A stretch of 64,000 nucleotides of DNA from an uncultured Lachnospiraceae bacterium (lineage in GTDB: Bacteria; Bacillota; Clostridia; Lachnospirales; Lachnospiraceae), in NCBI GenBank assembly GCA_947630125.1, contig CANRGO010000002.1, forward strand, positions 6,829 to 70,828. The letters are read 5' to 3'. Positions 32,234 through 48,507 of this stretch are shown here, piece after piece (position 1 is the first letter of the stretch; each line of letters begins with the position of its first letter). The translations under genes and the position numbers were made by a program. The notes under the pieces were generated by a model. The model worked only from the letters and a program-made list of their open reading frames with translations. It ran no database searches and was not told where the DNA came from.

Positions 32234-32306
32234 GCGCGAGTGGCTCAGTTGGTAGAGCGCGACCTTGCCAAGGTCGAGGCCGCGGGTTCGAGTCCCGTCT
32301 CGCGCT
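32234..32306 (+). tRNA. tRNA-Gly (anticodon GCC), CCA not encoded
   Basis: Hand-folded cloverleaf. Acceptor GCGCGAG/CTCGCGC; D arm GCTC-AGTTGGTA-GAGC; anticodon arm CGACC-TTGCCAA-GGTCG; T arm GCGGG-TTCGAGT-CCCGT; 73 nt. Confidence 0.9.
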
Positions 32307-39217: not shown

Positions 39218-39258
39218 AAAAGATATATCACGAGACGTGATATATCTTTTTGTTTTTT
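39218..39258. terminator. Bidirectional terminator between convergent ilvE and the ABC-2 permease gene
   Basis: AAGATATATCACG-AGA-CGTGATATATCTT stem, A-run upstream and T-run downstream. Confidence 0.85.
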
Positions 39259-39260
39259 TG

Positions 39261-40091
39261 TTAATCCAAATTCATTTTGTTTTTCATAAGTACAACAGTA
39301 AGAATGTAGTAAAATACTCCAAAGACTGCAGCAATAGCAAATCCACTTAACAAACTGCTGTTCATAATAGCACCGAAAGAGGCGGCATCTTCAATGCTGT
39401 TAATGGCCTTATCGATTGTAAAAGGAAGTGTAATAATCGAACTTATGGTTTGTTGAAGTATGTAGAGTCCAATATAGGAAACGATGGAACCCATAACCTT
39501 ATGTCTGCCAAACATCTGACCAATTGAGATCGCAGCATAAATCATTAAGATTGCTGAAAACGTACCGACAATCACACCGATAATAATCAGAAAGCCATAT
39601 AATCCAAGGTTCATACCTAACTCTTGTTCTAAAATTGGTTGAACTTCACGCCATCCCTTTGCTATTTCAGCAGCTAAATCAACGGTAGGCTCCGCATATG
39701 TAATCAGGCTAAATGCAAGTGAAATTACGCTTAAGATAATGGCAATTGTTGTGATCAAATAAAATGCAACGGTAACAAATAATTTGGAAAGTACTTTTGC
39801 ATGGACGCTAACAGGAAGTGTATGCATTAGATAACCTTCATCACCATATAAGTTCCTGTAAAAACGAACTCCCATAAAAATTAATACAGCAAAAATAATT
39901 ACGATAATGGTTAAATAATATAAAATCAAAGATAGAACACCAAAAATTTGAACCACTTCTAATTGATTTTCTGCAAATAAGGCACGGAAGGAAAACATTC
40001 CGAGCAAGGTTACTAAGAGGAGGAAGCAATTCATAGCTAAAATTATTCGCCAACTGCTTTTCCATTCATACTTTAATAATTTTCTTAACAT
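39261..40091 (-). CDS. ABC-2-type transporter permease
   Basis: Six hydrophobic segments; GGGAGG RBS; start overlaps the ATPase stop (ATGTTAA). Confidence 0.7.
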   Translation of the reverse strand: MLRKLLKYEWKSSWRIILAMNCFLLLVTLLGMFSFRALFAENQLEVVQIFGVLSLILYYLTIIVIIFAVLIFMGVRFYRNLYGDEGYLMHTLPVSVHAKVLSKLFVTVAFYLITTIAIILSVISLAFSLITYAEPTVDLAAEIAKGWREVQPILEQELGMNLGLYGFLIIIGVIVGTFSAILMIYAAISIGQMFGRHKVMGSIVSYIGLYILQQTISSIITLPFTIDKAINSIEDAASFGAIMNSSLLSGFAIAAVFGVFYYILTVVLMKNKMNLD

Positions 40092-40786
40092 GCAAATACC
40101 TCCCGGAAAAATGCGTCAACACTTTTTCCTTTTTCTTCCCGGATATTTTCTACAGTAGAACATAAAACAACCTGTCCATCACGAATAAAAATAACATCAT
40201 CTAGGATATTTTCAATATCAGAGATTAGGTGGGTGGAAAGAAGTATGGTAGCATTTTCGTTGTAATTTGTAATGATGGTTTTTAAAATATAGTCTCTGGC
40301 AGCAGGGTCTACTCCGGCAATAGGCTCATCCAGAATAAATAGGTCTGCATCACGACTCATAACTAATATTAACTGTACTTTTTCTTTGGTGCCTTTTGAT
40401 AAAGTCTTTAACTTTGCATTGCTATCAATGTTTAAAGATTGTAACATTGCATAAGCTCTGTCCTTTGCAAAATCTTCATAAAAATCTGCAAAAAAATCAA
40501 CCAGTTCATAAACCTTCATACTATTTTGTAAATATGTTTTTTCTGGTAAATACGCAATTTTCTTTTTGCTTTCAATTCCAATTTCATGGCCATTGATTAA
40601 AATAGTACCTGCTGTAGGTGTTAGTAAGCCATTCATCATTTTAATAAGTGTTGTCTTTCCGCTTCCATTAGGACCTAAAAGTCCGATAATTTTACCTCTT
40701 GGAATGGATAGGTTCATATTATTTACCGCAAGTTTTCGACCTTCGTAAACTTTTGTAAGGCCAGAAATTTCAACTAAATTATTCAT
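40085..40786 (-). CDS. ABC transporter ATP-binding protein
   Basis: Start trimmed to MNNLVEISGL... Walker A GPNGSGKTT, signature LSKGTKEK, Walker B FILDEP. Confidence 0.9.
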   Translation of the reverse strand: MNNLVEISGLTKVYEGRKLAVNNMNLSIPRGKIIGLLGPNGSGKTTLIKMMNGLLTPTAGTILINGHEIGIESKKKIAYLPEKTYLQNSMKVYELVDFFADFYEDFAKDRAYAMLQSLNIDSNAKLKTLSKGTKEKVQLILVMSRDADLFILDEPIAGVDPAARDYILKTIITNYNENATILLSTHLISDIENILDDVIFIRDGQVVLCSTVENIREEKGKSVDAFFREVFAC

Positions 40787-41156
40787 TCTGTGCCCCCTTT
40801 TCCGCAACTGTCTGTAGTAATGATATGATTTCTTCTTTTTCAAAGCCAAGTTCTTTCATTTTGTCAAAAAAAGCAACAATTTGTTCCGTTGCTAAATCCT
40901 GCTGAATTTCCTTTATCATCCCCAAATCCTCCGTTACTAATCGTCCACTGGTGCGTTGCGTAATAATTAATCCGCTCCGTTCCAGTTCTGTAAATGCTTT
41001 TTGCATTGTATTTGGATTTACACTTGCAACTGCCGCAAGTTCCCTTACACTTGGTAGCTTAACTCCTGGTTTATAAAAACCAGAAACGATTTGCAGTTGT
41101 ATTTTTTCCACGAGTTGCAAATAAATTGGTCTGTCAGATATTAAGTCCCATGCCAT
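40779..41156 (-). CDS. GntR-family (YtrA subfamily) transcriptional regulator
   Basis: 125 aa; winged HTH KLPSVRELAAVASVNPNTMQKAFTELERSGLI; short C-terminus; heads an ABC operon, as in ytrA systems. Confidence 0.85.
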   Translation of the reverse strand: MAWDLISDRPIYLQLVEKIQLQIVSGFYKPGVKLPSVRELAAVASVNPNTMQKAFTELERSGLIITQRTSGRLVTEDLGMIKEIQQDLATEQIVAFFDKMKELGFEKEEIISLLQTVAEKGAQNE

Positions 41157-41187: not shown

Positions 41188-41224
41188 ACACATTTGATGT
41201 GTCACTGTACTAATTAATTAATAC
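41188..41224. promoter_or_regulatory. Two palindromes in the divergent control region (candidate YtrA-type operators)
   Basis: ACACAT-TTG-ATGTGT (41188-41202) and GTACTAATT|AATTAATAC (41207-24, one mismatch), 30-70 nt upstream of the GntR start. Confidence 0.35.
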
Positions 41225-41293
41225 AATAATACGAATAATTAAGAATGTCAATAGTTTTTTGAAAATATTATAAGGAAAAAGATACGGGTTATA

Positions 41294-41323
41294 TTGCGTT
41301 ATGTAAAACGAAGATGCTATAAT
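41294..41323 (+). promoter_or_regulatory. Extended -10 promoter candidate for the five-gene operon
   Basis: TTGCGT-N18-TATAAT, with TGc immediately upstream of the -10. Confidence 0.45.
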
Positions 41324-41373: not shown

Positions 41374-42288
41374 TTGAAAGAAGTCATAGAACAATTAATA
41401 AACGACAAATTTTATACAGATAATGGAACCCTTGATTTTTCCTGTTCAAGTATTGAAATCAGTTTGAAAAAAAATGAAATTCCAGAGGAGTTCTTTCAGA
41501 TATTTTACGAGGGAAAGGTTCCATTAAAGGGCGTTATCACAACAAGCGATTTAAGAATTCGACTTCGTAAGAAAGAATTATCAAATGAAAGTAAGGAAGT
41601 TCGATTCTTCTACGATAGTACAGGCTTAGAAGAGGGAGATATTATAAAATCTTCCATTATCCTGATTACCAATATGGGAGAGTATGAGATTCCTGTACTT
41701 GTAACCGTGGAACAAGGGTATTTAAAATCTTCCTTAGGTGATATTAAGAATTTATTTCATTTTGCAAATCTAGCAAAAAGCAATTGGATGGAAGCTGTGC
41801 AATTATTCTACTCCAAAGAATTTCATCGGATCTTTGTTTCCAATGACAAACAACATTATCCAACCTATCTTGGATTAAGTCAGGCAAAAGGAAATCAGAA
41901 GAATGTGAACGAATTTCTCGTTATGATCAATAAAAAACAAAAGATAGAATATTTTGTTGAAAAACAGCAGTATTTATTTGAAAATCCAAGTGGCATTACA
42001 GAAGATACCATTAAGTTAACCAAAAATGGATGGGGATATGTTGATTTACAGGTAGAGGTAGAGGGAGATTTTCTCTTTGTAGATAAAGAATTTATCAGTG
42101 ATCAGGATTTTTTAGGGAATCATTGTTTTATAAATTTTCATGTAGATCAGGAAAAACTTCATATTGGGAAAAACTTCGGTAAGATTATGATTTCAAATAT
42201 TTTTTATACATTTGAAATTCATGTGACAGCTACATGGGAATGGACCGAGCGGGTTCATATGAAAAAGAGAAACAGCTGGAACGAATGA
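41374..42288 (+). CDS. Hypothetical protein, beta-rich (two putative beta-sandwich modules); gene 1 of an uncharacterised operon
   Basis: TTG start 4-5 nt after GGGGGT. Alternating-polarity beta-strand patterns (IILITNMGEYEIPVLVTVEQ; FGKIMISNIFYTFEIHVTA). No motif I can name. Confidence 0.6.
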   Translation: MKEVIEQLINDKFYTDNGTLDFSCSSIEISLKKNEIPEEFFQIFYEGKVPLKGVITTSDLRIRLRKKELSNESKEVRFFYDSTGLEEGDIIKSSIILITNMGEYEIPVLVTVEQGYLKSSLGDIKNLFHFANLAKSNWMEAVQLFYSKEFHRIFVSNDKQHYPTYLGLSQAKGNQKNVNEFLVMINKKQKIEYFVEKQQYLFENPSGITEDTIKLTKNGWGYVDLQVEVEGDFLFVDKEFISDQDFLGNHCFINFHVDQEKLHIGKNFGKIMISNIFYTFEIHVTATWEWTERVHMKKRNSWNE

Positions 42289-44930
42289 ATTTGGAACTTA
42301 TCAAAGCTTTTGTTTTGTTCCGGGGACAGAAAATATCTATGTCAGAATGGTTAAAGCAGACAGGTAAAATCGTAGAGCAGTTTGGAGATTATTATTTTGA
42401 TTTTCCAGGTTTTCGTCTATATCAGGCTCACTATTTAATCGGAGAAGAGCGGGTAAACGAAGCAAAATGGATTTTGGATCATATGGATGCAGAATTGTCC
42501 AAAGGTGAATTCCATCCAGAGTTTATGTGCTATTATCTGTTTTTAACCACACTTTTAAATAAAGAACTGGACTATGTTAACAATGTTACTGCCGAAGTAA
42601 AAAAAATATATGGGAATTATCCAACTTCATGGAGAGTGGCCTGGATTTATTTATACTTAGAAGAAGAATTTGCAAGAAGTGCTTCCAGTAAATGGCTATT
42701 TTTAGAAGAAGTATTTGAGAGAGGGTGTAGTAGTCCTGTTATCTATGTAGAGGCTTTGCAATTATTAAAAACCAATCCTACATTGCTACGTAAACTGGAT
42801 GGATTTGAACTTCAGATTTTGTATTTTGCGGCAAAAAATCAGTTGCTGGATATGGATTTAATTCATCAAATTCATTATCTTATGGGAAGAATAAAAGTAT
42901 TTCATCCTCTGTTATTAAAACTTCTGGAAGCATGCTATGAAATAAAACCTGAACAGGAAACGTTAACGGGCATTTGTTCGCTTTTAATATCTGGAAACAA
43001 AATAGGCACACAATATTTTCCTTGGTATGAACGAGCTGTTATGATGAATTTGCGAATTACAAAGTTATATGAATACTACATAAACTCCATCGATTTGAAT
43101 TTTCATGGAGAGTTGCCTCGAATGGTAGTTTTGTACTTTGCTTATCAAAGTGATTTAAGTTATGAAGTGAAAGCCTTTTTATATTCCAACATTTTAATGT
43201 ATGAAGATAAATATCAGGATATCTCTCTTCATTATCAGATGGAAATGGAAAAATTTGTTTTGGAACAAATACAACTGGGGCACATTAATGAAAAACTTGC
43301 TTATTTATATAAGCAATTAATCACACCTGCCATGCTAAATAAAGAAGTTGCAAATAAACTAACCAATTTATTGTTTGTTCATAAGATTCAGGTGTTTCAA
43401 TCAGATATCAGGCGAGTGGTTATTTTGCATTCAAAAACAGAACAGGAACTTAGTTATCCTGTGATTCATCAGATGGCATATGTCCCAATCTATAGCAGTG
43501 ATTATAGTATTTTTCTGGAAGATGCAAAGCAAAACCGTTATGGACAAACCTTGGATTTTCAAGTTGAAAAGTTAATTGGTCAAAGCAAACTTTTTACAAT
43601 GGTACATTCTTTTGTTCAGGATCAGTTGGGATACGATTTGTACTTATGTGAAGGAGCCAGAACCGGCATTTCCATTACAAGAGAAAATTGTGAACGGTTT
43701 TTAAGAATCTTAAAATCCTCAAAAATAACAAATGAGTATAAAAAAGAAATTCGTTTGCGTCTTGTTCAATTTTATTATGAGAATGATATGATTCAGGAAC
43801 TGGATGAGTATTTGCTTTCGATTGAAACAAAAAAGTTGGATAGTCGGGAGCGCGGTGAGTTACTCCAGTATCTGGTAAACAGAGGAATGCATGAAGTGGC
43901 TTTTAAGTGGATACGTGAGTATGGCTTGGAGGGTGTGCAGGTAAAAAGTCTGCTACGATTATGCGGAAGACTTCTTTCCAGAGACAGCTTAAGTTTTGAC
44001 CAGGATTTGGTTCTTATTTGTTACAATGCTTTTAAAGGCGGAAAATATGATGAATATATTTTGACGTATTTATGCCAATATTATGAGGGTTTAACAAAAG
44101 AATTAAGGGATATCTGGAAGGCTGCGAAGGACTTTGGAATAAATCTGCATACGATTAGTGAGCGAATAGTCGTGCAAATGCTTTTTAGCGGAGCATATGT
44201 AGGAGAAAAAGCTTCCATCTTTGAAAGCTATAAAAAGACAGGTTCGTCACCTAAGATTACGCTTGCCTATCTGTGTCAAAATGCCTATGAATATTTTATT
44301 TTAGATCGAATGGTGGACGATTCTATTTTTCTGGATATGGAATATTTATTTCAGAGAGAGGACACCTTAAATCTGATTTGTAAATTGGCATATTTGAAAT
44401 TTTTTGCTGAAAATAAGAAGCTTAGAACTGGAAATACCATTTCCATCAGTGCGGAGTTTGTTCGTGACATTCTAAAACAACACATGGTCTTTCCGTTTCT
44501 AAAGGAATATATGGATGCTGTAAATGAACTAAGCTTCCTTGCGGATAAAACCATAATTGAGTATAAAACAAAGCCAGAAAGCAAGGTTGTTATTCATTAT
44601 GTGTTGGAAAAAGAAGAAGGACCACATGAGTATCTCAAAGAAGAAATGCAAAATATGTATGGTGGAATATATGTTAAATCATTTGTGCTTTTCTTCGGGG
44701 AGTCTTTACAGTACTATATAACAGAAGAGTGTGAGAGAAAAGAGCAACTTACTGAAAGTGGAACGATTAGTAAAAGTGATCTTGGTTTTTCAACGAAGGA
44801 AAGTCGTTTTAATCTGTTAAATGATTTAGTGATTTCAAAAACCTTACAGGATTATGAAACGTTTGATAAAATTCTGGAAGAGTTTTTACGGAATGATTTT
44901 TTAGTACAAAAGCTATTCAAAATAGTATAA
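42285..44930 (+). CDS. Hypothetical 881-aa alpha-helical repeat (TPR/HEAT-like) protein; gene 2
   Basis: The ATG at 42285 overlaps the upstream TGA (ATGA coupling); the ORF-track ATG at 42234 lacks an RBS. Helical-repeat composition throughout. Confidence 0.65.
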   Translation: MNLELIKAFVLFRGQKISMSEWLKQTGKIVEQFGDYYFDFPGFRLYQAHYLIGEERVNEAKWILDHMDAELSKGEFHPEFMCYYLFLTTLLNKELDYVNNVTAEVKKIYGNYPTSWRVAWIYLYLEEEFARSASSKWLFLEEVFERGCSSPVIYVEALQLLKTNPTLLRKLDGFELQILYFAAKNQLLDMDLIHQIHYLMGRIKVFHPLLLKLLEACYEIKPEQETLTGICSLLISGNKIGTQYFPWYERAVMMNLRITKLYEYYINSIDLNFHGELPRMVVLYFAYQSDLSYEVKAFLYSNILMYEDKYQDISLHYQMEMEKFVLEQIQLGHINEKLAYLYKQLITPAMLNKEVANKLTNLLFVHKIQVFQSDIRRVVILHSKTEQELSYPVIHQMAYVPIYSSDYSIFLEDAKQNRYGQTLDFQVEKLIGQSKLFTMVHSFVQDQLGYDLYLCEGARTGISITRENCERFLRILKSSKITNEYKKEIRLRLVQFYYENDMIQELDEYLLSIETKKLDSRERGELLQYLVNRGMHEVAFKWIREYGLEGVQVKSLLRLCGRLLSRDSLSFDQDLVLICYNAFKGGKYDEYILTYLCQYYEGLTKELRDIWKAAKDFGINLHTISERIVVQMLFSGAYVGEKASIFESYKKTGSSPKITLAYLCQNAYEYFILDRMVDDSIFLDMEYLFQREDTLNLICKLAYLKFFAENKKLRTGNTISISAEFVRDILKQHMVFPFLKEYMDAVNELSFLADKTIIEYKTKPESKVVIHYVLEKEEGPHEYLKEEMQNMYGGIYVKSFVLFFGESLQYYITEECERKEQLTESGTISKSDLGFSTKESRFNLLNDLVISKTLQDYETFDKILEEFLRNDFLVQKLFKIV

Positions 44931-44949
44931 ACATAAAACCAGAGGATGA

Positions 44950-46269
44950 ATGATGTTAATTGATAAAAGTGTGCTTGGGAAAAAGAATGCTGATAAATAT
45001 TTTGTAGGCTATGATTTGGGGAATTTGATTTCTCAGATTAGTTATTGTAGTATCGCAGAGAAAGAACCAGAGACTGTTGCGGTAGTTGCAGGTAGCCAAC
45101 AGTTTAATATTCCTACCGTTTTATCAAAAAGACAGGAAGTCAATCAATGGTACTTTGGTAAAGAAGCGGTTAAATATCACCAGGAAAAGAGTTGTGTATA
45201 CCTGGATGGATTGTTAGAAAAAGCAAGGAAGAAAGAATCTATCTTGGTAGAAGATACAGAGTATCATCCAGTTGCATTGCTGGCATTGTTTATGAAGCGA
45301 AGTCTTTCTCTTTTATCCCTGTTAATTCCGCTGGATAAAGTGGAAGCCATGATGATTACAGTAGATGATTTGGATTATGAAATGATAGAAGTACTAACAG
45401 AAGTGGTTTTGCAAATGAATTTAAAGACTAAGCAGATTTATTTTCAAAGTCACATGGAAAGTTTTTTTCATTATGTGATTCGCCAACCGAAAGAGCTTTG
45501 GAATCATCAGGTCGTTGCCTTTGATTTTACATCAGATTATTTAAAAAGTTATCGGCTTGAAATGAATCGACACACGACACCTATGGTAGCATTCATCGAA
45601 AAGCAGCATATACATCAAATTAACCGAGTAATTGAAGAACAGCCAGGTGAGGATTTTGGAATTAAAGATAAGGGACTGGCAGATGACTTGTTTTATAAAA
45701 TTTGTGAAGAGACAGTATCGGGACGTATCGTAACTACAGTGTATCTTGTGGGAGAGGGTTTTCAAGGAGAATTTACAAAAAAATCACTTCCCTTTCTTTG
45801 CAATACCAGAAGAGTATTTGGGGGCAATAATTTATATAGTAAGGGTGCCTGCTTTGCCTTATGGGATAAACTGGAACTGTCAGAGTCTTCCAGAGCATAT
45901 ATTTTTCTTGGAGAGGATAAATTAAAGGCAAACCTTGGAATCAACCTTTGGAAAAGAAGAGAAATTATCTATCTTCCGCTTTTGGATGCTGGGGTAAATT
46001 GGTATGATGCAAAAAGCGAAGTAGATGTAACACTGCATCAGGGAAATACAATTTGCCTTCTCGCAACTCCTTTAAATGGAAAAAATAAACGGGAATATAT
46101 TATGACATTGGATGGTTTGCCTGAAAGACCAGAGAAAACAACCCGACTTAGAATTATACTGGATATGAAAAGTGAGCAGATTGCGCATATAACAGTTTTG
46201 GATTTAGGGTTTGGAAGTGTTTTTCAAAGCAGTAATTTGAAATGGGAAGAAGAATTTGCGATTATTTAA
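44950..46269 (+). CDS. Hypothetical protein with degenerate actin/Hsp70 (ASKHA)-like motif order; gene 3
   Basis: FVGYDLGNLISQ (res ~18-29), NIPTVLS..YFGKEA (~53-73), VVAFDFTSDYL (~188-198) and VYLVGEGFQG (~264-273) mirror the DLGTT / PSVV..G.eA / DLGGGT / LVGG order of Hsp70/MreB. Confidence 0.6.
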   Translation: MMLIDKSVLGKKNADKYFVGYDLGNLISQISYCSIAEKEPETVAVVAGSQQFNIPTVLSKRQEVNQWYFGKEAVKYHQEKSCVYLDGLLEKARKKESILVEDTEYHPVALLALFMKRSLSLLSLLIPLDKVEAMMITVDDLDYEMIEVLTEVVLQMNLKTKQIYFQSHMESFFHYVIRQPKELWNHQVVAFDFTSDYLKSYRLEMNRHTTPMVAFIEKQHIHQINRVIEEQPGEDFGIKDKGLADDLFYKICEETVSGRIVTTVYLVGEGFQGEFTKKSLPFLCNTRRVFGGNNLYSKGACFALWDKLELSESSRAYIFLGEDKLKANLGINLWKRREIIYLPLLDAGVNWYDAKSEVDVTLHQGNTICLLATPLNGKNKREYIMTLDGLPERPEKTTRLRIILDMKSEQIAHITVLDLGFGSVFQSSNLKWEEEFAII

Positions 46270-46287
46270 ACAAGAAAGGACACTACC

Positions 46288-47121
46288 GTGAGCAATCTAA
46301 GTCTATGTGTTGGAAAATATGCAAAAACTCCATATCTTTTGGAAAGAACCAACACAACGGTTTCTTCCATTGAAGAGTTATGTTATGTTATGAAAGAAAA
46401 TTTATTCTTGCTGGATAGTCGTAATATGAATCGAAAACTGGCGGATTTTATTGACCTGGAATTAGGGCTTTGGGATCTTAGTAAGAATTTATATGGTTTG
46501 CTAAATGGAAACTCAAGTGTGAGTGCTTATGTTACTACAATATTAGAATATGTAGGTTATTTAGAACCGGCACAAATCAAAGAAATAGAAAGTTTATTAA
46601 AGGAAAACGCAAATCTGAACGAATTTGAGAAGAGAAAAGTTCGAGCTGATTATGAAATGAAAAACCAAAGATATATGACTGCAGTACGAGAATATCTTGA
46701 AATTTTAAATCTGATTGATGAAAGTGATTATGTGCTGCAATCAAAAATGCTTCATAATCTTGGGGTTGCCTATGCCTGTATGTTTTTATTTGAGGAAGCA
46801 GGGGAGTATTTTCATCTTTCCTATCAAAAGCATCGCCAGGAAGAATCCTTGATCCAATATCTTGCCTGTATCAGGATGTTTAAATCGGAAGAAGAATATA
46901 TTTCATTTTTAAGTGAAAAACCGGAATACTTTGAGAGTTCCTTAAGACTTGAAAAAGACATGGCAGCAGTTATGACTCAATGGAAGGCAACCAAAAGTAA
47001 GTACTTATTGGAAGAACTTTTGGAACTGAAGGAACATGGAAATGTGTCCGCTTATTATCAGAAGGCAGAAGAAACGCTGGCTCATTTAAAAGAAATGTAC
47101 AGAGAGAGTGTGGTGGTATAG
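46288..47121 (+). CDS. Hypothetical helical (TPR-like) protein; gene 4
   Basis: GTG start after AAAGGA. The central YMTAVREYLEILNL...LHNLGVAYACMFLFEEAGEYFHLSY looks like TPR pairs. Confidence 0.55.
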   Translation: MSNLSLCVGKYAKTPYLLERTNTTVSSIEELCYVMKENLFLLDSRNMNRKLADFIDLELGLWDLSKNLYGLLNGNSSVSAYVTTILEYVGYLEPAQIKEIESLLKENANLNEFEKRKVRADYEMKNQRYMTAVREYLEILNLIDESDYVLQSKMLHNLGVAYACMFLFEEAGEYFHLSYQKHRQEESLIQYLACIRMFKSEEEYISFLSEKPEYFESSLRLEKDMAAVMTQWKATKSKYLLEELLELKEHGNVSAYYQKAEETLAHLKEMYRESVVV

Positions 47122-47122
47122 C

Positions 47123-48316
47123 ATGGGTCTGAAAGACTGGTTATTTAAAAAAAGAAAAAAACAGACTGTGCAGGAAGATGCAACTTATGATTTTGCGGAT
47201 TTTTCCAAGCAATCCACAGACTTAAGTTTTTCTCAGATTAAAGTTCAGGATGACTATCAGAGAGAAAAGTATATTAAAAATTGTCTGGAACAAATAGGGG
47301 AAGTGGCGTCGCAAATTGATACACTTAATATGGAATATTCCATCGTTACCTCTTACCTTTTGGATATTGAAGAGATTGAAGCCTTGCCAAAGGAAGAAAA
47401 AGATGAAGTTTTAGACTGTGCAGGTGTGATTGAACGCTATGAAAATGAGCGGGCAACGTATCAGGGCAGAAAAAGAGTAATTTCTGAAAAAGACTTTACA
47501 GCTATGGAAAAACTGGAAGATTTTATGCCAGAAGCCTATGAAAAGTTAAAAGCAGCGGAAGAGATGAAAGGAAAAATTAAACAAGATCTGGCAAGACTGG
47601 AACATGAAAAACAGGCATACGATCTTCAAAAAAATGATCTTCGCACAGCTTTGTCCAATTATAAATCCATGACAATCATAACCATGGGTGCATTTCTTTT
47701 TTTAATGTTTGCCTTATTTTTATTTCAGACCTTTTTAGAAATGGATGTTATGCTTGGCTACTTGGTTTCCATTGCAGCAGCAGCGCTTGTGTTAACAGTG
47801 GTATTCATGAAATATACAGATTCTAATATTGAAGTGAAACAGGTAGAAAAGGCTTATAATAAACTAATCCTATTACAAAACAGAGTAAAAATCAGATATG
47901 TTAATAATACTCAGTTGGTAGATTACCTGTGTCTGAAATATGGAGTGAAAGGTGTTAAGGATTTAAATAAATTATGGCAAGCCTATCAGGAAGAACAGGA
48001 AATCAGGAAAAAATATGAATATGCAACCACTACCTTAGAAAGGGCAAGGCGTGATTTGTTTGGAATCCTAAAACGGTATCAATTAACAGATCCACATATT
48101 TGGCTTAGACAGACAAAAGCACTGATCGATCCAAAGGAAATGGTAGAGATCAGACATGAACTTATTACCAGAAGACAAAGCCTTCGAAAGCAACTGGAAT
48201 ACAATCAAACCATAGCAGAACAAAGAAAAGAAGAGTTGAAAACTATGGCAAATCTTTATCCACAGTATGCAAAGGAAGTTTTGTCCTATGTAAATGAATA
48301 TGAAAAAAACAGATAA
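47123..48316 (+). CDS. Hypothetical coiled-coil protein with central two-helix membrane hairpin; gene 5
   Basis: ATG 1 nt after the upstream stop. Long heptad-like charged segments flank IITMGAFLFLMFALFLFQTFL and VMLGYLVSIAAAALVLTVVFM. Confidence 0.6.
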   Translation: MGLKDWLFKKRKKQTVQEDATYDFADFSKQSTDLSFSQIKVQDDYQREKYIKNCLEQIGEVASQIDTLNMEYSIVTSYLLDIEEIEALPKEEKDEVLDCAGVIERYENERATYQGRKRVISEKDFTAMEKLEDFMPEAYEKLKAAEEMKGKIKQDLARLEHEKQAYDLQKNDLRTALSNYKSMTIITMGAFLFLMFALFLFQTFLEMDVMLGYLVSIAAAALVLTVVFMKYTDSNIEVKQVEKAYNKLILLQNRVKIRYVNNTQLVDYLCLKYGVKGVKDLNKLWQAYQEEQEIRKKYEYATTTLERARRDLFGILKRYQLTDPHIWLRQTKALIDPKEMVEIRHELITRRQSLRKQLEYNQTIAEQRKEELKTMANLYPQYAKEVLSYVNEYEKNR

Positions 48317-48361
48317 GTTTTAGGGAAAATATCAGTAAATTCCCAATGTATCTGTTTTTTT
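48308..48361 (+). terminator. Terminator of the five-gene operon
   Basis: ACAGATA...TATCTGT outer stem with an inner GGGAA/TTCCC stem, followed by T8; the stop codon lies in the stem. Confidence 0.6.
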
Positions 48362-48507
48362 TATGCACAATGGAGAATTTATAGTTAGAAGTCATTGTTT
48401 TGTTGATTTCTATGGGGTACTCATGTAAAATGAAAACGGACTTTTCTCGGTTTAAAGCAAAAAAGCAATAATTTGAGTGCATGAAAAGCATGCAGATGGG
48501 AGCAAGA

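Follow-up and report, generated by a model that had tools for sequence, protein, structure and literature searches.

A four-gene operon from an uncultured Lachnospiraceae bacterium encodes a lidless protein of the Hsp70 fold without the canonical ATP loops, together with a tetratricopeptide repeat (TPR) partner, a large scaffold and one membrane protein. The operon lies in a stretch of 64,000 nucleotides (GenBank assembly GCA_947630125.1, contig CANRGO010000002.1, positions 6,829 to 70,828 of the forward strand), referred to below as the window and numbered from its first letter. It consists of a DUF5717 gene, which in this assembly is read as two open reading frames (ORF1 and ORF2), followed by gene 3 (DUF5716), gene 4 and gene 5. 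We interpret the products as an Hsp70-like holdase or scaffold complex that is tethered to the membrane and probably independent of ATP, its nearest analogue in logic being Ssz1 in the ribosome-associated complex (RAC), and give this interpretation a probability of about 0.45. A first-pass annotation had described five genes of no recognisable function; a function is indeed still unassigned, but three of the five ORFs fall into the catalogued Pfam families DUF5717 and DUF5716, both of unknown function, whereas genes 4 and 5 have no family. The inventory proposed there, a core like that of the acetate and sugar kinase/Hsc70/actin (ASKHA) fold combined with TPR-type scaffolds and a membrane-anchored helical protein, is borne out by structure models, profiles and hydropathy. 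Our literature search found no paper treating DUF5716 or DUF5717 in a functional context.

Predicted Hsp70 fold of gene 3

The product of gene 3 is a clear member of DUF5716 (DUF5716_C, E = 3e-102, 342 bits; the Pfam gathering cut-offs are 34.7 bits for this family and 25 bits each for DUF5717_N and the DUF5717 C-terminal domain). Its AlphaFold2 (AF2) model (predicted local distance difference test, pLDDT, 85.7; predicted template modelling score, pTM, 0.82) consists of a two-lobed nucleotide-binding domain (NBD) with trimmed IB and IIB subdomains, a linker and a beta substrate-binding domain (SBD-beta). Comparison of the model with the PDB by Foldseek gave 487 matches at E <= 1e-3, and the top 50 were all Hsp70-family chains or Hsp70-containing entries (DnaK, BiP, Hsc70, Ssb and Ssz1), with a best E of 2.7e-19 and approximately 510-570 aligned columns extending across NBD and SBD-beta at 10-13% identity. 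The chain stops at residue 439, where the sandwich is completed by its final beta-strand, and the alpha-helical lid (SBD-alpha) is absent; family members measure about 405-450 residues.

Profile comparison placed 128 representatives of the family colinear with DnaK and Hsc70 through NBD, linker and SBD-beta (hhalign, global E 5.9e-4, with provisional reference sequences, so that the mapping is a lead), the SBD-beta block LDGLPERP...DLGFG being aligned with LDGINPAPRG...DKNSGK of DnaK. A smaller profile of 20 sequences, compared with DnaK alone, yielded a weak match in SBD-beta only. The gene 3 profile found no Hsp70 among PDB sequences, and the protein did not match the Pfam HSP70 model, DUF5716_C being the only family reported at E <= 0.1. 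A profile search of the whole library recovered 1751 clusters out of 1.84 billion, and none of the best 150 has the length of a canonical Hsp70.

Catalytic positions were assigned over the 128 representatives from the weak profile alignment (E 5.9e-4, probability 12%) combined with the secondary-structure register. According to this mapping, the phosphate-1 (residues 24-27) and phosphate-2 (193-197) loops are variable and contain neither TT nor GGG, Q166/S167 occupy the place of DnaK E171, and a counterpart of K70 is absent, while D22, D192 and G268 are retained. Some of the strongest conservation in the family is seen in the linker and in the first SBD strands (LGEDKLKAN, LLDAG.NWY), suggesting that the ligand is specific and conserved and that clients are not bound promiscuously. 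The model identifies gene 3 with confidence as a lidless Hsp70 homologue in which both glycine-rich phosphate loops appear to have been lost across the family; structure model, Foldseek matches and motif columns agree in this respect with the earlier description of an actin/Hsp70-like protein with degenerate nucleotide loops. Among the operon products, no match to the DnaJ or GrpE families, and hence no J-domain or nucleotide-exchange factor, was obtained with Pfam or NCBIfam, although such partners may be encoded elsewhere.

A TPR partner and natural gene fusions

The gene 4 profile matched TPR domains in the PDB (E 2.6e-5), with designed consensus TPRs as the best matches, and 17 of 27 homologues matched Pfam TPR_12 and 16 of 27 TPR_2, in agreement with the TPR-like character noted previously. 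The repeats occupy residues ~110-230 and are preceded by a conserved N-terminal domain of ~110 residues whose fold was not recognised. The relationship between genes 3 and 4 is indicated by fusions: eight of the best 150 gene 3 clusters are proteins of 685-765 residues in which a full gene 3 is followed by a full gene 4 (P0370, P0398, P0406, P0409, P0416, P0485, P0502 and P0506). Pairwise identity among these proteins is only 25-35%, so that the fusion appears to be either old or recurrent, and it provides strong Rosetta-stone evidence that the two products work together. A metagenome scan with a fusion protein retrieved no close fusion relatives, returning instead a distant lineage in which genes 3 and 4 are separate. 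The idea that the C-terminal W.EEFEV of gene 3 might bind the TPR protein in the manner of an EEVD tail was rejected, as this segment is modelled as beta-strand 431-437 of the sandwich and other clades have TQTIMV or THTLQV in its place.

The DUF5717 scaffold and the membrane protein

The structure of the DUF5717 protein was modelled on the intact conspecific protein P0121, which serves as a stand-in for the split gene of the window (AF2, pLDDT 85.7, pTM 0.58). The N-terminal part contains two beta-sandwiches (residues 20-124 and 193-288) separated by a conserved helical insert (127-184); the middle is formed by two solenoids (293-667 and 738-1056) with a beta domain (669-733) between them, and a beta-sandwich (1059-1133) followed by two terminal helices completes the chain. 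The two beta domains within the helical part disagree with the first-pass description of the ORF2 product as all-helical. The N-terminal module and the C-terminal sandwich have the highest density of invariant residues. Foldseek returned only generic TPR superhelices (Ctr9, Ski3, Naa15, IFT-A) and tandem immunoglobulin (Ig)/ASH/PapD-like domains, with low TM-scores, and the profile gave nothing useful against PDB sequences. On the basis of the model, DUF5717 is predicted to be a cytoplasmic scaffold of Ig/ASH-like sandwiches and TPR-like solenoids.

Gene 5, which is always the last gene of the block, is the sole operon product with hydrophobic segments, two of which lie next to each other at residues ~181-232 in the hydropathy profile, where a central two-helix membrane hairpin had been proposed. 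The protein probably forms a membrane hairpin between two large helical domains, both of which would be cytoplasmic, like the other three products, because the loop is short and acidic and its flanks are basic. Conserved helical regions include LQN.VKIRYVNNT directly after the hairpin and EMVEIRH.LI.RRQ near the end. The ATG at 47123 is supported as the start codon because alignments of the homologues begin with MG..K.LF. No family in Pfam or NCBIfam covers the protein, and its profile found nothing useful in the PDB; the weak Pfam matches on the hydrophobic hairpin (DUF2207_C in 8 of 28 homologues, SLATT_4 in 3 of 28, T2SSF and holin) all remained below threshold.

Four genes rather than five

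For comparative analysis we used the best 80 of at least 559 species-level genome matches, nearly all from Lachnospiraceae, 74 of which contain an ORF1 homologue, and two close relatives, Logan contig L081 (98.7% identical to the window over 11.2 kb) and L082 (76% identical). The five ORFs are present on one strand at the coordinates given earlier, but the operon has four genes, not five, because ORF1 and ORF2 match successive parts of one Pfam model, are a single ORF in 74/74 related loci and are separated by a single-base deletion relative to L081. ORF1 covers DUF5717_N profile positions 1-299 (E 5e-94, 316 bits) and ORF2 positions 307-872 (E 1e-188, 629 bits) together with the DUF5717 C-terminal domain (E 1e-101, 340 bits). 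In the related loci the two parts are read in the same frame as one ORF of 1178-1201 residues, all 120 listed ORF2 homologues are ~1185 residues long, and in both L081 and L082 DUF5717 is one gene with the same neighbours as in the window. At the break the window has GAGA-AAC where L081 has GAGACAAC, a single C being absent between 42270 and 42271, and this is the sole coding indel in the 11.2-kb alignment. The intact protein continues as ...HMKKRQQLERMNLELIK..., whereas the window reads ...HMKKRNSWNE-stop, then MNLELIK..., so that the only residues lost between the fragments are QQLER. In the AF2 model the break maps to residues 290-296, a low-confidence linker that joins the first solenoid helix to the N-terminal beta module. 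ORF1 and ORF2 together make up a single DUF5717 gene, whose frameshift is confined to this assembly, and the count of five genes is an artefact produced by the loss of one base.

The split is either a strain-specific mutation, whether recent or tolerated, or an assembly error, and is no feature of the system itself. For the second possibility, namely that the strain truly carries an intact 1185-residue gene and the division into 304 and 881 residues arose during sequencing or assembly, the chances are in our estimate somewhat short of even. The difference amounts to one base, a single 81-kb NCBI contig is the only recorded source of the split products, and the other full-length members of the 90% cluster have 1185 residues; differences from the conspecific are predominantly synonymous in ORF2 (38 synonymous to 8 non-synonymous), as they are in gene 4 (11:0) and gene 3 (10:4). 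On the other hand, the lost base is a C in GACAAC, which changes no homopolymer length, other indels in the 11.2 kb are confined to an intergenic T-run, an unsystematic look through the ORF table of the 64-kb window showed no obvious second split gene, and a real recent mutation fits the data equally well, with the ATGA overlap of the two ORFs permitting re-initiation. A strain mutation could possibly be tolerated through such coupled re-initiation. In addition, G AAA AAG at 42261-42267, just upstream of the deletion, is a possible -1 slip site, and slippage there would restore the full-length protein with KK-EK-QLER replacing KK-RQ-QLER. Programmed frameshifting as the normal state was rejected, since conspecifics carry the intact frame. 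The T-runs at 39252-39253, between the aminotransferase and ATP-binding cassette (ABC) permease genes, read T5 G T7 in the window and T6 G T9 in L081. On a 60.3-kb contig of the same species from the Joint Genome Institute (JGI), DUF5717 is called as at least 6 fragments of 95-296 residues, and that assembly seems riddled with frameshifts.

Operon organisation

The operon is a sigma-A-driven, terminator-bounded unit of four genes and forms a rigid block in Lachnospiraceae (Table 1). As the first-pass annotation had reported, ORF1 and ORF2 share the stop/start overlap ATGA at 42285-42288, and the coordinates give gaps of 19, 18 and 1 nt between the later ORFs. The promoter pattern is a unique match within the window. 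A generic promoter scanner did not list it, its -35 element matching the consensus at only 3/6 positions; the candidate is nevertheless better than a chance match because the extended -10 element, TGGTATAAT or TGCTATAAT, is found again in 36 of the 73 homologous loci in which it was counted, 40-60 nt ahead of the DUF5717 start and usually together with a -35 of TTGC(A/G). The terminator likewise proved as described, with an RNA fold of -20.4 kcal/mol (z = -5.67) that none of 200 shuffled sequences equalled in stability. No Rfam family or riboswitch is present on either side of the operon. Pfam and NCBIfam searches of the products found no nuclease, protease, NTPase, other enzyme or effector domain, and, given the promoter, the terminator and the short gaps, the view of one compact transcription unit of non-enzymatic proteins holds. 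The sole Rfam match in the whole window is a single tRNA gene at 32234-32306 (71 bits).

Table 1. Coordinates of the operon features in the window
Feature	Position	Strand	Description and basis
Promoter, sigma-A-type	41294-41323	+	TTGCGT, 18-nt spacer, TATAAT with TG-extended -10; TGCTATAAT at 41315-41323
ORF1, DUF5717 N-terminal fragment	41374-42288	+	TTG start, 304 aa (residues 1-299 plus 5 out-of-frame)
1-nt deletion site, C lost	42270-42271	+	blastn against L081
ORF2, DUF5717 C-terminal fragment	42285-44930	+	881 aa from the ATG of the ATGA overlap; residues 305-1185
Gene 3, DUF5716, predicted lidless Hsp70 homologue	44950-46269	+	439 aa; Pfam, AF2, Foldseek, hhalign, motif columns
Gene 4, TPR protein	46288-47121	+	277 aa; profile against PDB, Pfam TPR matches, natural fusions
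Gene 5, predicted two-helix membrane hairpin protein	47123-48316	+	397 aa; hydropathy windows
Intrinsic terminator	48300-48365	+	Hairpin, 5' arm overlapping the gene 5 stop codon, then U8

Conservation of the block and its neighbourhood

Of the 80 loci, 74 have the order DUF5717-DUF5716-gene 4-gene 5, and two more are cut by a contig end; the median intergenic gaps are 21, 20.5 and 18 nt (72 loci). Human-gut metagenome contigs (L083-L114, e.g. L088:4419-11154) retain the four-gene order at 30-33% protein identity. Some of these contigs (L109, L110 and L114) have several frame changes inside DUF5717 and gene 3. The block is stably located between housekeeping genes, consistent with the core-genome context and co-conservation proposed earlier, and its gene order is conserved across Lachnospiraceae while the flanks vary.

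Upstream, the neighbours comprise a SpoIID/PG-binding protein in 43 loci, HtpG in 34, a divergent GntR-ABC unit, found in the window too, in 19, and a PrsA-type peptidyl-prolyl isomerase (PPIase) in 17, HtpG and the PPIase both lying within 5 kb. At L013:1254-6112 and in 33 other loci, genes of the set PrsA-type PPIase, HtpG and SpoIID/PG_binding_1 stand directly upstream, as in many Lachnospiraceae; all three are absent from the 64-kb window. Downstream, purC-purF-purB are found in 44-47 loci. HtpG occurs in 11 of 20 gene 3 clades, and the pur genes likewise in about half of the 20. An amino-acid ABC transporter (SBP_bac_3, permease, ATPase) is inserted between the operon and the pur genes in 28 loci, and in a further clade, beside Kineothrix (e.g. 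L070:9944-13578), it precedes genes 3-4-5. Taken together, the flanks look like old family-level synteny around a self-contained block. A link to purine synthesis was set aside as inherited synteny, since the operon has its own terminator, no Rfam element is found on either side and the ABC transporter intervenes in 28 loci. The link to HtpG is retained as a lead only, HtpG being absent from the window and no better conserved than the pur flank.

The divergent GntR (YtrA-like)/ABC unit has at its promoter an imperfect palindrome, GTGTCACTGTACTAATTAATTAATACAATAATAC (41199-41232), and the motif TGTATTACTGTAT...TAATACAATAATAC recurs upstream of gntR in the other loci with this neighbour; the palindrome is probably the operator of the GntR repressor itself. 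Regulation of the operon by GntR/YtrA was rejected, because the palindrome is at least 60 nt upstream of the -35 and operons without GntR keep the same promoter. The ABC ATPase of this unit (40085-40849, minus strand) is given a TTG start in the longest ORF, which overlaps the end of gntR by ~70 nt; the true start is probably an internal ATG (MNNLVEISGL...), the homologues in L081 and L082 being called with 233 residues. Elsewhere, tandem GC-rich repeats of 50-60 nt (e.g. GCGAAGCGAGCCAGAGTGCAAAGCACGCCTGGCTTTG...) occur upstream of DUF5717 at L011:6010-6388 and L039:6146-6422, with none in the window. In Butyrivibrio hungatei, purF and purB are separated by a Clostridiales-1 RNA (L079:14929-15081, 109 bits), and a TwoAYGGAY RNA (L013:21177-21308) is located at the end of locus L013.

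Proposed mechanism and alternatives

According to our interpretation as a membrane-tethered holdase or scaffold complex, the four products would assemble on the cytoplasmic face of the membrane, with gene 5 as the anchor, DUF5717 and gene 4 as docking surfaces and gene 3 as a nucleotide-independent clamp or holdase. The SBD-beta of gene 3 would bind one particular peptide stretch of a client or partner, much as Ssz1 is held by Zuo1 in the RAC. As to the process served, our leading guess is membrane-proximal proteostasis or the assembly of an envelope-associated structure.

Several points weigh against this interpretation. The mechanism is inferred from synteny, protein folds and the fusion of genes 3 and 4. 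Nucleotides may still be bound despite the loss of the canonical loops, as D22, D192 and G268 are kept and Ssz1 still binds ATP, and the catalytic residues were mapped from a weak profile alignment with provisional reference sequences. The absence of a J-domain protein and an exchange factor fits a non-cycling protein, yet is negative evidence only. Finally, in the clade beside Kineothrix (L048, L055, L067 and L070) genes 3-4-5 occur with no DUF5717 within 8-10 kb, so that DUF5717 may be dispensable or act from elsewhere.

Among the alternatives, an envelope or morphogenesis module is unlikely but survives best, and it is compatible with the membrane-tethered complex rather than exclusive of it. 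Such a module would position envelope machinery in division, sporulation or wall remodelling without handling unfolded proteins. A membrane anchor combined with large repeat scaffolds would suit this role, and the operon appears to be confined to one bacterial family. The SpoIID/PG_binding_1 protein immediately upstream in 43 loci points in the same direction, but its orientation varies and it is absent here; similarly, the weak MinC_N_1 matches in 3 of 27 gene 4 homologues are below threshold. With regard to sporulation, the promoter is of the vegetative sigma-A type and not of a sporulation-sigma type, and the operon is present in Butyrivibrio, which is not known to sporulate.

We consider it quite unlikely that the operon encodes an active, ATP-cycling specialised Hsp70 system, in which non-canonical loops would operate, TPR proteins would replace J-proteins and exchange factors as co-chaperones or adaptors, and gene 5 would recruit the machinery to membrane clients. 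The full Hsp70 domain order including the linker is kept, and so are D22, D192 and G268; however, both phosphate loops vary among the 128 representatives, equivalents of E171 and K70 are absent, the lid is missing, and the operon contains no J-domain or GrpE-like protein. The proximity of HtpG (34 loci, 11/20 clades) and a PrsA-type foldase (17 loci) within 5 kb upstream would fit a chaperone function, but the HtpG neighbourhood, absent from the window, is no better conserved than purC-purF-purB and may be inherited synteny.

An actin-like filament system, with gene 3 polymerising on a membrane anchor, is very improbable. The Hsp70 NBD does belong to the actin-like ATPase fold, the first-pass annotation noted the ASKHA motif order, and a membrane-anchored helical partner recalls tethering of the FtsA or MreB type. 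Nevertheless, the listed top 50 Foldseek matches are to Hsp70 over NBD and SBD-beta and not to actin, MreB, ParM or FtsA, and gene 3 has lost the phosphate loops on which nucleotide-driven polymer dynamics would depend, which weakens the cytoskeletal option raised by the first-pass annotation. An anti-phage defence or other conflict system can be virtually dismissed: a multi-gene operon without known function that encodes repeat proteins and a two-transmembrane protein, with weak matches of 3/28 gene 5 homologues to SLATT_4, a two-transmembrane effector family, would be in character, but PADLOC gave no significant match (only MTase_II at E 0.0033, 14 bits), PHROGs gave no match and plasmids and viral contigs no copy of the operon, searches for effector domains such as a nuclease, protease or NTPase were negative, the chromosomal site between housekeeping genes is stable across the family, the promoter is of a conserved housekeeping type and the genes are under purifying selection.

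Significance

Lachnospiraceae are among the most abundant families of the human and animal gut. At least 559 species-level genomes contain the block, which stays intact down to ~30% protein identity yet has no function, name or paper. If gene 3 is a nucleotide-independent clamp connected to TPR partners and a membrane anchor, it would represent a bacterial Hsp70 turned into a structural subunit, a role best known from eukaryotic Ssz1, and, to our knowledge, a rare bacterial Hsp70-type protein dedicated to TPR partners. Such a finding would bear on the evolution of chaperone networks, and the four genes would provide four experimental entry points into a cell-biological process specific to the family, in organisms only now becoming genetically tractable. 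A bolder proposal, which we regard as doubtful although worth considering, is that the operon encodes a dedicated machine, tethered to the membrane, whose central component is a descendant of Hsp70 without ATP cycle or lid, permanently partnered by TPR proteins and in some lineages fused to one of them; this would be a prokaryotic Hsp70-TPR partnership with an origin independent of eukaryotic Hop/CHIP and RAC.

Comparison with known systems

What was already known of these proteins is the existence of DUF5716 and DUF5717 as catalogued, uncharacterised Pfam entries. ORF1 plus ORF2 (PF18984/PF18983) and gene 3 (PF18980) are clear members, with E between 1e-94 and 1e-188; these entries are families of unknown function, and genes 4 and 5 have no family of their own. 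The DUF5717 protein resembles large scaffolds that combine TPR superhelices with tandem sandwiches (Ctr9, Ski3, Naa15 and the IFT-A subunit TTC21B; the ASH domains of Hydin and CEP192), with Foldseek E of 1e-5 to 1e-3, but TM-scores of 0.06-0.15 and ~10% identity limit this resemblance to the fold class, with no evidence of shared ancestry or function. Gene 4 shares with the TPR co-chaperones Hop/Sti1, CHIP, Tah1 and SGTA a short TPR array, its profile matching Tah1, SPAG1 and, weakly, CHIP and SGTA, and it is likewise tied to an Hsp70-type protein both genetically and, through the fusions, physically. The similarity is generic, however, gene 3 having no free EEVD-like tail and gene 4 possessing an extra N-terminal domain.

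With Hsp70/DnaK (PF00012), gene 3 shares the domain order and fold (two-lobed NBD, hydrophobic linker, beta-sandwich SBD; Foldseek E ~1e-19) and the colinear LxGxP.xP...D..xG block of SBD-beta. In contrast to the ~610-640 residues and lid of Hsp70/DnaK, gene 3 has 439 residues and no lid, its IB and IIB subdomains are trimmed and identity is 10-13%; both phosphate loops and the equivalents of K70 and E171 are lost, and of the ATP-binding and hydrolysis motifs of Hsp70/DnaK (phosphate-1 DLGTT(N/Y)S, phosphate-2 DLGGGTFD and adenosine GG(S/Q)TR) gene 3 retains only D22, D192 and G268 according to the weak alignment; no J-protein or GrpE partner accompanies it.

The closest parallel is Ssz1, which is lidless, binds ATP without hydrolysing it and has its SBD-beta complemented by Zuo1 strands and a pseudo-substrate motif (PMC7083937). 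Like gene 3, Ssz1 lacks the lid and has an SBD-beta; it is a stable, partner-held subunit that undergoes no ATP-hydrolysing cycle (PMC7083937), and Ssz1 chains (6sr6, 7x3k and 5mb9) are among the top Foldseek matches of gene 3. Ssz1 still binds ATP, keeps the canonical loops and has a J-protein partner on the ribosome, whereas the loops of gene 3 are lost, its partners are TPR and membrane hairpin proteins, and nothing points to an association with the ribosome. We draw the analogy in function, with no claim of orthology. The operon encodes an Hsp70-derived system with an unusual set of partners, which is neither a canonical Hsp70 nor wholly without relatives.

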